Assembly: GCA_028282785.1 (NCBI GenBank)
Contig: JANQHE010000061.1
Location: forward strand, 195,170 to 259,169
Length of the DNA: 64,000 bases
Reading direction: 5' to 3'
Source: Bacteroidales bacterium
GTDB taxonomy: Bacteria > Bacteroidota > Bacteroidia > Bacteroidales > UBA12077
Position numbers and translations under genes: made by a program. Numbering within the stretch: position 1 is the first letter of the stretch; each line of letters opens with the position of its first letter. This document shows positions 27,130 through 31,668 of this stretch, piece after piece. Below the pieces are notes generated by a model that saw only the letters and a list, made by a program, of their open reading frames with translations, did not search any database and was not told where the DNA came from.

Positions 27130-28110
27130 ATGAAACAAACAGTAAAAATTGAAAAGACAATTCTTAAAGGAATTGAAAAAGAAAAAGCTCTTTTTGAGTT
27201 AAAAGATTATTTTAAACAAGGAATTAAGAAGAACCTAAACCTTTTGGAAGTAAGTGCGCCATTGTTTGTAACTTCCGGTACAGGCATTAATGATGATTTA
27301 AACGGAGTTGAAAAACCTGTTAGATTTATAGCTAAATCCTATCCGGATAGAAAACTGGAAATAGTTCAATCTTTAGCCAAATGGAAAAGATTAAAAATAA
27401 GCGATCTGCAACTACCCATTGGAGAAGGGATCATAACAGATATGAAAGCCTTGCGCCCTGATGAAATCATAAGCCCGATACACTCAATTTATGTGGACCA
27501 GTGGGATTGGGAAAAAAGAATATCTAAACCGGAAAGAAATCTGGGTTATTTGAAATCAACCGTGCAAAGTATTTATAAGTCGATGAAAGAAGCCGAGGAA
27601 TATATTTCCGGTTTATTTCCTTTTATTAAACCATTCTTGCCCGCAGATATAACTTTCATACATTCCGAGGAACTTCAATACAGGTATCCTAAGTTAACCC
27701 CTAAAGAAAGAGAAGATGTGGTAGCCAGGGACCACGGTGCGGTTTTTATAATAGGAATCGGGCACGAACTAACAGATGGTGTTCCACATGATCTAAGGGC
27801 GCCGGATTATGATGATTGGTCAACTCAAACCGGCCCTTCGTACAGAGGATTAAATGGAGATATAATTGTATGGAACCCGCTCTTAAAAGGTGCATTTGAA
27901 ATTTCGTCGATGGGAGTTAGGGTAGATAAAAAATCGTTATTGAAACAGCTTAAAATTACTCGAACGGATTACCGAACTGATTTATCATTTCATAAGAAAT
28001 TATTAAATGACGAATTACCCTTTACGATTGGTGGCGGAATTGGACAATCAAGACTGGCAATGCTTTTATTAAAACAAAAACACATATACGAAGTACAATC
28101 TATGATTTAA
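27130..28110 (+). CDS. asnA: Aspartate--ammonia ligase (asparagine synthetase A)
   Basis: Collinear with E. coli AsnA as I remember it: [63 protein letters not shown]. Confidence 0.95.
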   Translation: MKQTVKIEKTILKGIEKEKALFELKDYFKQGIKKNLNLLEVSAPLFVTSGTGINDDLNGVEKPVRFIAKSYPDRKLEIVQSLAKWKRLKISDLQLPIGEGIITDMKALRPDEIISPIHSIYVDQWDWEKRISKPERNLGYLKSTVQSIYKSMKEAEEYISGLFPFIKPFLPADITFIHSEELQYRYPKLTPKEREDVVARDHGAVFIIGIGHELTDGVPHDLRAPDYDDWSTQTGPSYRGLNGDIIVWNPLLKGAFEISSMGVRVDKKSLLKQLKITRTDYRTDLSFHKKLLNDELPFTIGGGIGQSRLAMLLLKQKHIYEVQSMI

Positions 28111-28288
28111 TCAGACGTTCATGTTGCTCAAACCATACATACTTGTGAAACCTGCTTTTTGCAGGTTTTCTTTTATGATAAAAAGATGGCGCTGAAAAAT
28201 ATGATAAAAAATGATCATGTCCAAAGTCAATACCTTCCAATTTGTTTTATGATTATTTATAAAAATTGTAAATTCACGAAACAAAATG
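27981..28288 (+). repeat. Direct repeat, left copy (asnA 3' end plus 178 bp downstream, including the terminator)
   Basis: Aligns by hand with 31356..31668 with about 25 substitutions and two small indels. The last 88 bp differ at a single position. Confidence 0.9.
28148..28174 (+). terminator. asnA terminator
   Basis: Stem aaacctgc / gcaggttt with a ttttt loop and a T-rich tail. A second copy lies inside the right repeat, at about 31523..31553. Confidence 0.7.
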
Positions 28289-28731
28289 ACACATTTGTAG
28301 ATATGTCGCAAGGTAAACAAGCTTTTGTTATACTTAAATTATTGTTAGAGTTTAGCGATAAGAGTTGTCCTATATTAATTGATCAACCAGGGGATAGTTT
28401 GGACAACAGAGCTATTTATAATGAATTGGTCAAGTACTTAAAAGATAAGAAAAAGGAACGACAAATTATTTTGGTAACGCATAACCCGAATGTAGTTGTA
28501 AGTACCGAAGCCGAACAAATTATTGTTGCAAATCAAGAAGGGAAAGACTCTCCGAATGAAGCTGCATTGAAATTTCAATATGTTTTTGGTGCTTTAGAAT
28601 ATTCTAAACCAGAAGATAAGGACATGAAATTTGTTATTAAATCAAAAGGTATTCGTGAACATGTTTGTGAAATATTAGAAGATGGCGAAGATGCATTTAA
28701 ACAAAGAGAAAGAAAATATGCAATAAAGTAA
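28289..28731 (+). pseudogene. C-terminal fragment of an ABC/SMC-like ATPase, truncated at the repeat boundary
   Basis: Only the signature-like MSQGKQAF, the Walker B/D-loop ILIDQPGDSLD and the H-loop VTHNP remain. There is no Walker A. The part of the track ORF upstream of 28289 (28159..28288) is read-through of the repeat, not coding sequence. Confidence 0.65.
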
Positions 28732-28764
28732 CTTTACCCCTTCACCTCAGATAAAGATTAGATT

Positions 28765-29783
28765 ATGGAAGAAAATAAATCACAAATAATCATATATCAA
28801 ACCGAAAGCGGAGAAACAAAAATTGATGTGCGTTTTCAGGATGAAACAGTTTGGCTTACTCAAAAGTTTATGGCTGAATTGTTTCAGACAACGTCACAAA
28901 ACATTACTATTCACCTTAAAAACATATTCGAAGAAGTTGAATTAGAGGAAGATGCAACTTGTAAGGATTTTTTACAAGTTCAAAAAGAAGGTAACAGGGA
29001 AGTTAAACGTAAACAAAAATTTTACAACCTTGATGCTATTATTTCTGTTGGTTACCGAATAAAATCGCATGTGGCAACAAAGTTTCGTCAATGGGCTACC
29101 CAACATATTAAAGAATACATTGTAAAAGGTTTTGTGCTGGATGATGAAAGATTAAAAAATCCTGATTTGCCTTTCGATTATTTCGAAGAACTTGAAAGAC
29201 GAATCCAGGATATTCGCACATCTGAAAACGATTCTACCAAAAAATTACAAATATTTATGCGACAAGTGTTGATTACGACCCAACGCTTGATATTAGTATT
29301 GATTTCTTTAAAACAGTACAAAATAAACTACACTGGGCAATTACAGGTCATACAGCTGCGGAAATAATTAGCCAAAGAGCCGATAGTTCAAAAGATAATA
29401 TGGGCTTAACTAACTGGAGAGGTGATAAAATAAGAAAGGCTGATGTTTCCATAGCTAAAAATTATTTGAATGAAGAAGAATTAACCTCATTGAATAATTT
29501 AGTTGAACAATACTTGATTTTTGCACAAGGGCAAGCAATGAGACGAATCCCAATGTACATGAAAGATTGGATTGAAAAATTAAATGGATTCTTAACCTTG
29601 AATGACAGGGAAATTTTAAGTAACGCAGGTTCAATATCACACGCATTGGCAAAAGATAATGCCGAGAAGGAATATGAAAAATATAAGGACACTCAACAAA
29701 AAAAGATTACTGAAAGTGATTTTGAAAAAGTGATAAAAAAAATAGAAGGAAAGAAGAAAAATAAAAATGAATTGAACATTTAA
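28765..29783 (+). pseudogene. rhuM: RhuM-family gene with a single frameshift
   Basis: ORFs 28765..29367 and 29400..29783 match the N- and C-terminal parts of the intact paralog at 33952..34998. Shifting the frame by one at the A-run near 29225..29230 restores KRFYQKITNIYATSVDYD...HWAITGHTAAEII...MGLTNW. Confidence 0.85.
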
Positions 29784-29930
29784 GCGAAGTCTCCCACTCA
29801 CAAACAGCATATTGCAAATCGCGCAAGCTGATGCTAAAACCAAAATTTGCAAAAGAGTTGCTTTATGCCATCGCACAGGTGGAATTATGATTTATATCAA
29901 TTTAGTCAGGATAAAACTGACTATCTCTCT

Positions 29931-30752
29931 ATGAAGAATAAATATATATCAACTCAATCTAATAAAATCCTTTCCTATTTTAACCAATTGGGACAGGATT
30001 GTTTTGACTATTCCGAAGCAGTTCAGGCACTTCCAAAATCTAGCGACAGTGCACTGAAAGAGCTGCTTAGTGACATGGTTAAGCGAGGACTTTTGATGAG
30101 ATTAAAAAAAGGACTTTATCATATAATTCCCTATGAAAAAGAACCTGATAATTTTATGCCCGATTGGCATTTATTGGCTCAACCTCTCACTAAAGGAACC
30201 GAACATTATATTGGCTACTATTCTGCATTACATATTCACAACCTGATTACTCAGCCATCATTAAAAGAACAGATTGTTGTTGCCAAACAAATGCGACCAT
30301 CAACGTTGAAAATAAAAGACGTTAATTTTCAGTTCATCTATCATAATGAAAAACATTTCTTCGGGTTCAAAAAAATATGGATTGATAGTTTTAATAAGGT
30401 TTTATGTTCTGACCTGGAAAAAACATTCATTGATTGCCTTTTTAAACCTGATTATGCAGGTGGAATTGTTGAAATAGCAAGGGCAATTTACGCATCAAGA
30501 GATAAGATAAAATTTAAACGGTTATTGGAATATGCGGAGAAGTTCCAATCACAGGCAGTTATTAAAAGGTTAGGTTATACTCTTGAAGTGCTGGGAATTA
30601 AAACTGACATTATTGAGCAATTACAGAAACAGAAAACTTCATCTTATGTGTTGCTTGACACGGAGTTACCAAAAACGGGTAAAATGATAAGTCGTTGGAG
30701 TATCCAACAAAATTTAGAAACAGAAACGATTAAATCTGCAATTTACACATGA
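29931..30752 (+). CDS. AbiEi-like antitoxin / transcriptional regulator (COG5340-type)
   Basis: Pattern ...KRGLLMRLKKGLYHIIP...HYIGYYSALHIHNLITQ...LEKTFIDCL. The ATG at 29931 is preferred. Its stop overlaps the next gene's start (ATGA). Confidence 0.6.
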   Translation: MKNKYISTQSNKILSYFNQLGQDCFDYSEAVQALPKSSDSALKELLSDMVKRGLLMRLKKGLYHIIPYEKEPDNFMPDWHLLAQPLTKGTEHYIGYYSALHIHNLITQPSLKEQIVVAKQMRPSTLKIKDVNFQFIYHNEKHFFGFKKIWIDSFNKVLCSDLEKTFIDCLFKPDYAGGIVEIARAIYASRDKIKFKRLLEYAEKFQSQAVIKRLGYTLEVLGIKTDIIEQLQKQKTSSYVLLDTELPKTGKMISRWSIQQNLETETIKSAIYT

Positions 30753-31318
30753 TAAAACCGGGTGAAATACAAAATAAGGCACGTGAAACAGGTGTACGCG
30801 ACCAACAGATAGAAAAAGACTATGTAATATCGTGGATTTTACAAGGATTGACAAAACAGAAACAGCTAAGTGAAGAAATTGTTTTCAAAGGAGCTAATAA
30901 ACGCATTAAGGTTGATATATCAAGAACAGAAAAGTTGGAATTTGAACCTGTTGTTCGTGATGTGTTTTGTAATTATAGCGACCTTGAAGAACATCAACTA
31001 CTTTGTTATTCGCTTGAAGAAGTATTGGTTGAAAAACTTCGTTCGATTATGCAACGGATGCAGGTAAGAGACTTTTATGATATTTGGTACTTATTAGAGG
31101 TTCATGGGATGGAAATCGACTTTTTACTAAATGAATTTAAAGCGAAATGTGAGAACAAAAACGTTAATCCTTCGGAATTTGAGGCAAAACTTAAACAAAG
31201 ATTACCTCAATACAAAGGGCGTTGGCAAAAGTCAATGAAAGACCAAATAAAAGATCTGCCTGGTTTTGAGCAGGTAGAAAGAGAGCTAATGAGGTATTTA
31301 AGAAAATTGGAAATATGA
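30749..31318 (+). pseudogene. AbiEii/AbiGii-like nucleotidyltransferase toxin lacking its catalytic core (in-frame internal deletion)
   Basis: The N-terminal IEKDYVISWILQGL...IVFKG runs directly into the C-terminal half (YSLEEVLVEKLRSIMQR..RDFYDIWYL). The usual GGTAL...SEDLDF segment is absent, leaving 189 aa where members I recall are well over 200 aa. Confidence 0.5.
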
Positions 31319-31355
31319 GTAATATCTTAGATTTCATAGCAAAAGAAACTAATAG

Positions 31356-31668
31356 TTTATCATTTCATAAGAAATTATTAAACGATGAATTATCATTTAC
31401 TGTTGGTGGTGGAATTGGACAATCAAGGCTGGCAATGCTTTTATTAAAACAAAAACACATATCCGAAGTACAATCTATGATTTAATCGGACGTTCATGTT
31501 ATTCAAATCATACATGCCCGTGAAACCACCTGCTTTTTGCAGGTTTTCTTTTGTAATAAAAGGACGGTGCTGAAAAAAATATGATAAAAAATGATCATGT
31601 TCAAAGTCAATACCTTCCAATTTGTTTTATGATTATTTATAAAAATTGTAAATTCACGAAACAAAATG
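31356..31668 (+). repeat. Direct repeat, right copy (orphan asnA 3' end plus downstream)
   Basis: See the left copy. Positions 31356..31485 still encode the last ~42 AsnA codons in frame ([42 protein letters not shown], then a stop). Confidence 0.9.

Follow-up and report, generated by a model that had tools for sequence, protein, structure and literature searches.

A decaying, repeat-flanked cluster of anti-phage genes downstream of asnA in a marine Bacteroidales bacterium

The DNA analysed here, called the window, is a 64,000-nucleotide stretch of the genome of a Bacteroidales bacterium (assembly GCA_028282785.1, contig JANQHE010000061.1, positions 195,170 to 259,169). Downstream of asnA, the gene for aspartate-ammonia ligase, it carries an islet, a non-autonomous, decaying 3.07-kb cluster of mostly broken anti-phage genes, which lies between two direct repeats copying the end of asnA. 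The features of the locus are listed in window coordinates (nt, nucleotides; aa, amino acids; ORF, open reading frame; the relatives L082, L086 and L185 are introduced below).

27130..28110, + strand: asnA (aspartate-ammonia ligase, 326 aa), intact; Pfam AsnA, E=3e-96
27981..28288, + strand: left direct repeat, 308 nt, made up of codons 284-326 and the stop codon of asnA, its terminator and 178 nt of the spacer
28147..28169, + strand: intrinsic-terminator hairpin of asnA with T-run, left copy; terminator scan
28289..28731, + strand: C-terminal fragment (last ~15%) of a TrlF/Ppl-like AAA/ABC-type ATPase gene; NCBIfam NF045780, E=9e-58; PADLOC Ppl
28765..29783, + strand: rhuM pseudogene (PADLOC candidate family PDC-S05); Pfam, PADLOC
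29931..30752, + strand: abiEi antitoxin/regulator gene, apparently intact, 273 aa; PADLOC PDLC02267, positions 1-251 of 252, E=2e-97
30749..31318, + strand: abiEii nucleotidyltransferase toxin gene with an in-frame internal deletion; PADLOC, Pfam coordinates
31315..31485, + strand: 56-aa orphan ORF, 13 novel residues followed by the C-terminal 43 of AsnA
31356..31668, + strand: right direct repeat, 313 nt, continuous with the native downstream flank
31528..31544, + strand: terminator hairpin, right copy; terminator scan
31608..31747, no strand assigned: conserved intergenic element of ~140 nt, near-invariant in the window, L082, L086 and L185

The repeats, the empty site and the islet

The repeats were located with a repeat finder, and the copies were aligned with MAFFT. 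They lie where a sequence-only reading of the window had placed them, at 27981-28288 and 31356-31668, and the left one takes in the last 43 codons of asnA. The two copies differ by 22 substitutions, fewer than the approximately 25 counted in that reading, and by the two small indels that it had reported (3 nt and 2 nt). The 43 codons hold nine nucleotide differences, six synonymous and three non-synonymous (P>S, I>V and Y>S), and the frame of the orphan AsnA tail in the right copy is open; the three amino-acid changes and the open frame agree with the earlier description. The differences are unevenly spread, with 21 in the first 214 nt against one in the last 94 nt (Fisher p=0.004). This single distal difference, at 28221/31601 in the comparison of 28195-28288 with 31575-31668, bears out the earlier remark that differences are scarce at the distal end. 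The hairpin of the asnA terminator is kept in all strains and in the sister species.

Three relatives that are ~97% identical to the window lack the islet: L082, a contig of an NCBI metagenome-assembled genome (MAG; GCA_028279845.1), and two Logan contigs, L083 and L084. All of them encode the AsnA protein P0001, to which the AsnA of the window is 98% identical, and in all of them asnA stands directly before the genes for an M13 peptidase, DUF1428 and RhuM that follow the right repeat in the window. A blastn alignment of L082 with the window runs at 96.6% identity to exactly 28288 and resumes at exactly 31356 with 97.8% identity. In a sister species (L185, AsnA 78% identical), the site is empty as well, with an Mrr gene downstream. 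The alleles of these four sequences consist of the left flank, one copy of the repeat and the right flank, which confirms the earlier claim of a genuine insertion with empty-site relatives. The AsnA of the best GTDB representative is only 59% identical, the species being barely sampled.

The islet itself is present in a second strain, represented by a TARA Oceans scaffold of 174 kb (L086) that is 95-97% identical to the window and has the same junctions on both sides. Its islet rhuM is intact (333 aa), and it too yields the 56-aa orphan ORF. It lacks the segment corresponding to window positions 29923-31069, which holds abiEi and most of abiEii; this deletion formed at a 4-nt GACT microhomology, so microhomology-mediated deletion is demonstrably active in this islet. 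Downstream, an Mrr gene takes the place of the M13 peptidase and DUF1428 genes. Between the window and L086, the interior of the islet is 92-95% identical and the flanks are 95-96% identical. Since the interior is as diverged as the flanks, the insertion is old, about the age of the strain split.

The structure is real and strain-variable. It is scarcely credible that it reflects an assembly artefact or a dispersed repeat family. The short-read contigs L001, L085 and L184 do break inside the repeat, and L085 and L001 match the window at 100%, but both junctions are contained in the TARA scaffold, and L085 reads across the left one with 100% identity. In the 64-kb window, a 44-nt segment of the repeat has exactly two occurrences, where chance would give none, and the copies in relatives lie solely downstream of asnA. 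The repeat is thus tied to asnA, as had been proposed, and does not belong to a dispersed family.

The interior between the repeats measures 3,067 nt (28289-31355) and holds four defence-gene items, three of them broken. The TrlF/Ppl-like fragment, which begins at the repeat edge as previously noted, spans only profile positions 825-943 of 944 (NF045780) and falls short of a full-length TrlF/Ppl protein (~900 aa, with an N-terminal domain and a Walker A motif). In rhuM, a 1-nt deletion in an A-run at 29224/29225, placed by alignment to the intact 333-aa TARA copy, leaves ORFs of 200 aa and 127 aa. The AbiE pair is incomplete: AbiEi is full length, but AbiEii is internally deleted, and most of the pair is absent from the TARA strain. 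Residues 7-48 of AbiEii correspond to profile positions ~14-52 and residues 49-187 to ~121-258, so that ~68 profile positions (~53-120) are gone. Exact look-ups of the AsnA, AbiEi and AbiEii proteins of the window found no existing record.

Pfam, NCBIfam and PADLOC profiles detected no recombinase or transposase domain among the interior ORFs, in agreement with the earlier statement that no integrase lies between the repeats, and the islet of L086 contains no recombinase either. All interior ORFs are assigned to the truncated TrlF, RhuM, AbiEi or AbiEii. Because the coding density of the interior is high, no space is left for another gene such as a recombinase. A transposon or insertion sequence was rejected: besides the lack of a transposase domain, no terminal inverted repeats were found at 28289/31355, and the 308-nt repeats are diverged. 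The islet appears to be an ordinary immobile remnant and no active mobile element, and it decays independently in each occupied strain.

Joints and ancestry of the repeat copies

The left joint, J1 (28288|28289), cuts the trlF reading frame at profile position ~825 of 944. The homology of this frame, QNDTFVDMSQGK, extends into the final 7 nt of the repeat, CAAAATG. Where TrlF homologues read YQND(S/T)F.NMSQGK at J1, the window reads KQNDTFVDMSQGK, and the Q and N codons sit in these last 7 nt of the repeat. The residues upstream of J1 were taken from the homologues P0134 and P0167 and from locus L087. As the trlF homology runs into CAAAATG, J1 would be an illegitimate joint with at most 7 nt of microhomology, judging from the trlF homologues. 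The right joint, J2 (31355|31356), lies at asnA codon 284, 37 nt past the abiEii stop codon, and shows no recognisable feature. By their sequence, both novel joints look illegitimate.

The close TrlF homologues are all short (142-255 aa). The idea that the truncated trlF marks a special recombination site was dropped, the shortness being due to the Met of the signature motif, whose ATG is the first one available once the gene is disrupted farther upstream. In the loci L090-L093 (5706-8429), a trlF-like gene carries an in-frame TAA that divides it into ORFs of 749 aa and 142 aa. In L087 (1-742), a lone 142-aa TrlF remnant with degenerate upstream homology stands beside ubiE/yidC/pyrG. Frequent disruption of TrlF-like genes creates a widespread apparent family of 142-aa proteins.

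The ancestry of the repeat was followed in an alignment of five copies, the left and right copies of the window and of the TARA strain and that of the empty site, to which L184 and the sister species were added later. Both orphan (right) copies agree at five sites against all gene-attached and empty-site copies (window-left 28026, 28127, 28133, 28141 and 28144). The TARA left copy and the empty-site allele have five characters in common, including indels of 2 nt and 21 nt. Since the sister species has the 21-nt segment, this is ancestral, and its absence from the window left copy and from both orphans is derived. The two site splits are compatible with a tree that places the window left copy between the native and the orphan types. 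As the gene-attached copy of the TARA strain is of the native type, with the 21-nt indel in common with the empty site, it is the orphan that travels together with the islet, and the gene has kept its native tail.

In the sequence-only reading, the islet was likened to an element that brings a replacement end for its target gene. A known case is e14 of E. coli K-12, which lies between the intact icd gene and icdC, an orphan C-terminal fragment; the icd and icdC copies differ mostly synonymously, and loss of e14 recombines them into a chimera (PMC13626634). Like e14 and phage 21 at icd, the islet adjoins the 3' end of a gene for a housekeeping enzyme, between this gene and an orphan tail. If it had arisen in the same way, the copy brought by the element would have replaced the 3' end of asnA by a crossover at the 5' edge of the homology, and the orphan would be the displaced native end. 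The icd/icdC-like architecture and the open orphan frame would fit such an origin. It is nevertheless highly improbable: over the left ~205 columns, the TARA gene-attached copy is of the native type and has the 21-nt indel, the two strains' orphan copies form one cluster, and there is no integrase. Moreover, e14 has its own integrase, is excised in the SOS response and supplies the functional gene end, whereas the islet has no recombinase, leaves the native tail with the gene and has its left joint inside a truncated cargo gene.

Nor is the orphan allele demonstrably foreign, as far as its sequence allows judgement. The earlier proposal that the copies diverged under purifying selection, one of them coming from another functional asnA allele, found no support when other strains were added, by which the changes could be assigned to branches. 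The private coding changes of the orphan copies are three non-synonymous and three synonymous, and appear compatible with neutral decay. Native alleles vary likewise, as full-length AsnA proteins of the same cluster differ by up to three residues in the repeat stretch, and only one or two synonymous coding sites distinguish the two repeat types. The 56-aa ORF, whose ATG overlaps the abiEii stop codon (ATGA), is kept in both occupied strains (window 31315-31485; L086 11933-12103), with substitutions too few for a selection test.

Distances between the copies bear on a further possibility, an in-situ duplication. In the left ~245 nt, matching copies (left/left and right/right) differ across strains by 12-14 substitutions, and left and right copies within a strain differ by 18-21. 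From these distances, the divergence that predates the strain split amounts to only ~2.6%, no more than is seen within a population. A linear foreign fragment, reaching from the truncated trlF to abiEii, could have been captured at a replication fork or staggered break, both of its ends being joined illegitimately and a 308-nt target duplicated; the repeat copies would then have been identical at the start and have diverged since. The illegitimate appearance of both joints agrees with this, and the distance within strains, only ~1.5x that across strains, fits a duplication slightly older than the strain split. Such an origin is still quite unlikely. Target duplications of ~300 nt are unusual in bacteria, and additional recombination events would be required, because the TARA left copy groups with the empty-site allele by its two indels and the window left copy groups with the orphan type.

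A 2.5-kb contig, L184 (TARA_SAMEA6034828 scaffold_287828), has an asnA-attached tail (2204-2490) and ends inside the core. Within a 55-nt stretch of identity, this tail goes over from the empty-site to the orphan type. Either it is a natural recombinant allele, which would hint that the orphan type is native to asnA elsewhere, or the assembly has fused the left and right copies of the repeat.

The scarcity of differences at the distal end of the repeat had led to the proposal that the last 88 bp are the crossover region. This could not be upheld, since the TARA copies differ at eight sites in the same 94 nt in which the window copies differ at one, and none of the sequences varies in the last ~55 nt, not even that of the sister species, in whose asnA region identity falls to only ~76%. 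The last 41-55 nt are identical in both window copies, but they are invariant everywhere. The low divergence would be due to the conserved spacer element of ~140 nt (31608-31747), and recent gene conversion is not needed. Both repeats end distally in the first 61 nt of this element, the left one holding only this partial copy (28228-28288), and the insertion point lies within the element. A placement of the crossover at 28144-28220, by means of sites 28220 and 28224, was dropped when the patch proved homoplastic against the sister-species outgroup. Given that the informative sites at ~28220-28226 are homoplastic, the crossover point cannot be located.

Routes of entry

The explanation favoured here, tentatively, is that host recombination inserted a fragment from a conspecific or close donor, which has since decayed. 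It is favoured because no recombinase is present, the joints are illegitimate in type and the alleles have diverged to the extent seen within a population. It is also favoured because the homology of the repeats lies on the side that would have no function in a site-specific design, and because microhomology deletions are active. The islet would have entered the spacer downstream of asnA without a recombinase of its own. One route would be a Campbell-type insertion, in which a circularised fragment with a ~310-bp conspecific asnA tail recombines with the chromosome in a single homologous crossover. The other would be its linear equivalent, homology-facilitated illegitimate recombination, with one homologous and one illegitimate end. 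Either route would leave two copies of the asnA tail around the cargo, each seamless with its native flank, and illegitimate ends to the cargo. That the repeats are indeed seamless with the native flanks, with the novel joints facing the cargo, points to a Campbell-type insertion carrying its own asnA tail. We infer that homologous or illegitimate recombination made the insertion, and that the islet now has no way out other than recombination between its repeats or exchange by way of homology in the flanks.

Homology-facilitated illegitimate recombination, reportedly described by de Vries and Wackernagel in 2002, is said to combine a homologous anchor with a joint at a microhomology of a few nucleotides and to need no enzyme of the element. 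The islet would share with it the single homologous anchor and the other joint at a few-nt microhomology. The process differs in being documented in laboratory transformation of Acinetobacter and Streptococcus, and in usually deleting recipient DNA, not duplicating it. It is not known from Bacteroidota.

Several points weigh against entry by host recombination. Islands with repeats of a gene 3' end are, as a rule, the work of tyrosine or serine recombinases, and loss of the integrase is common. The model needs a prior event that placed the truncated trlF beside the spacer core in the donor; neither such a donor arrangement nor a circular form was observed. The comparison set consists of three strain-level genomes and one sister species. 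The history of the asnA locus is reticulate, so that neither the crossover point nor the direction of transfer can be fixed. Three-way site patterns are star-like in the left flank and ((window, L082), TARA) in the right flank, recombination is evident, and no tract common to the window and the TARA strain and linked to the islet was found in the flanks; a linked donor haplotype beside the islet was consequently dropped.

A final point is that asnA can be the target of an integrase. In the IMG/VR contig L096 (IMGVR_UViG_3300007711_000111, 6190-8264), a 399-aa tyrosine integrase with arm-binding, SAM-like and catalytic domains is encoded ~575 nt from an orphan AsnA C-terminal fragment (residues 245-326), which is followed by a host CN-hydrolase gene. 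Judged by gene order, L096 resembles the attR-type junction of an element that inserted into asnA in a Bacteroidales host. It belongs to another lineage of Bacteroidota, distant from that of the window.

This precedent is among the arguments for the main rival explanation, possible though somewhat less probable, in which the islet is a remnant of the type of the cis-mobilizable elements (CIMEs). An integrase-bearing element that had earlier captured ~250 nt of asnA tail by imprecise excision would have integrated at the conserved spacer core. The integrase module and 85% of trlF would later have been lost in a microhomology deletion that spared the attL/attR-like repeats. CIMEs are a described class of decayed remnants of integrative and conjugative or mobilizable elements (ICEs and IMEs), which have lost their integration and transfer genes and kept the flanking repeats, and such remnants are common (PMC5704250). 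Like CIMEs, for example those at the fda 3' end in streptococci, the islet has no integration or transfer genes and retains both flanking repeats at the 3' end of a core gene. A site of this kind, the direct repeats, the empty site and a cargo of defence genes would all suit such an origin, as would the strikingly conserved spacer core, which borders a variable slot (M13 peptidase and DUF1428, or Mrr).

The repeats of CIMEs, however, are short functional att sites for the integrase of a cognate element, whereas those of the islet are ~310-nt imperfect repeats with one clearly illegitimate joint. No integrase was detected in either island-bearing strain. J1 is a joint in a truncated gene with no remaining sequence of an element arm, and, as the gene has kept its native tail, the captured asnA homology would be on the side of any crossover where it has no function. 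Three strains and the sister species, 80 GTDB asnA loci, IMG/VR and JGI yielded no cognate element or integrase for the site, the genus being very thinly sampled; the single comparable case, L096, is unrelated. The core likewise had no match in viral contigs (IMG/VR) and none in JGI metagenomes with two patterns, and the copies in relatives lie solely downstream of asnA.

Two broader hypotheses were also rejected. The 3' end of asnA is no general integration hotspot, as no orphan asnA tail occurs within 10 kb at 80 GTDB asnA loci (52-59% AsnA identity) and IMG/VR yielded only L096. The L096 integrase family does not generally target asnA, since none of 80 relatives checked has an asnA fragment beside it. 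Both negatives also count against the CIME-like origin.

The microcin H47 island of E. coli has no recombinase of its own, and its excision products are hybrids that arise within several identity segments (PMC3191183). It resembles the islet in its small size, its extensive imperfect direct repeats and its lack of a recombinase. Its mobility despite such repeats can be cited in favour of a CIME-like origin. This mobility has been shown experimentally, whereas the present islet is known from sequence and its cargo is decaying.

The features of a site-specific integrative island are thus only partly present: direct repeats that duplicate the target and an empty site are found, and a recombinase is lacking. 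The locus is neither an autonomous integrative element nor an e14-type replacement end. A decayed, repeat-flanked defence islet in a strain-variable hotspot is of a known kind; asnA has not previously been reported as the target gene. The locus provides a worked example of how a repeat-flanked insertion at a gene 3' end, usually taken for an integrase footprint, is here explicable without an integrase. It also illustrates two misleading shortcuts, in which a low-divergence stretch is taken as a crossover core and an open orphan frame as a foreign functional allele. A few added strains sufficed to expose both.

Full-length asnA genes were observed in viral sequences. In the IMG/VR contigs L094, L095, L097 and L098, asnA lies amid phage genes (DNA methyltransferase, thymidine kinase and others), and a giant-virus MAG (L103) carries it in a giant-virus contig. 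The gene appears to be a virus-carried auxiliary metabolic gene.

The conserved spacer and the neighbouring genes

The locus is a small defence-gene hotspot beside asnA in an uncultured species of marine Bacteroidota, whose strains independently lose different defence genes. As in other defence-gene hotspots, the flanks are fixed and the content varies between strains (the islet, M13 peptidase and DUF1428 or Mrr, and a second rhuM). Such hotspots are usually filled by integrase-bearing elements, whereas here an ultra-conserved spacer of ~140 nt marks the slot. This unusually conserved non-coding element at the insertion point is the most interesting loose end of the locus and may merit its own study. 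It is ~97% conserved across species, against 76-85% for the neighbouring DNA, and persists whether the M13 peptidase or Mrr comes next.

The element was rejected as a known RNA or tRNA, with no Rfam match above noise, no tRNA and no covariation in it. It contains no conserved ORF, and a weak imperfect palindrome (31618-31632 / 31654-31668) is not significant (z = -1.5). An unlikely conjecture is that the element (31608-31747) serves as a dedicated docking site, attB-like or a recombination hotspot, for the in-trans exchange of defence cassettes without integrases. The islet, Mrr and the M13 peptidase with DUF1428 would then be successive occupants, and the conserved 56-aa ORF, with its translational coupling, would be retained for a reason.

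Directly after the conserved spacer lies the variable slot (31767-33870), which in the window and L082 holds the genes for the M13 peptidase (31776-33059) and DUF1428 (33336-33716). In L086 and L185, it holds an Mrr restriction endonuclease gene, and the Mrr region is 90% identical between the species against a background of ~82%. The M13 peptidase is short (427 aa), and only positions ~4-75 of the 381 in the M13 N-terminal domain profile match, an indication that much of its interior is lost or that its architecture is atypical.

The second rhuM (33952-34998, 348 aa, PDC-S05) is intact, lies 2.3 kb downstream of the islet and is conserved in all strains. With ~65% nucleotide identity to the islet rhuM, it is not a recent duplicate. 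Farther downstream, on the minus strand, 37016-41725 encodes a 1569-aa protein in which a complete RND transporter (ACR_tran, residues 2-1018) is joined to a C-terminal ABC ATPase (~1295-1439). This unusual fusion is kept as a 1557-aa protein in L082, L083 and L086.

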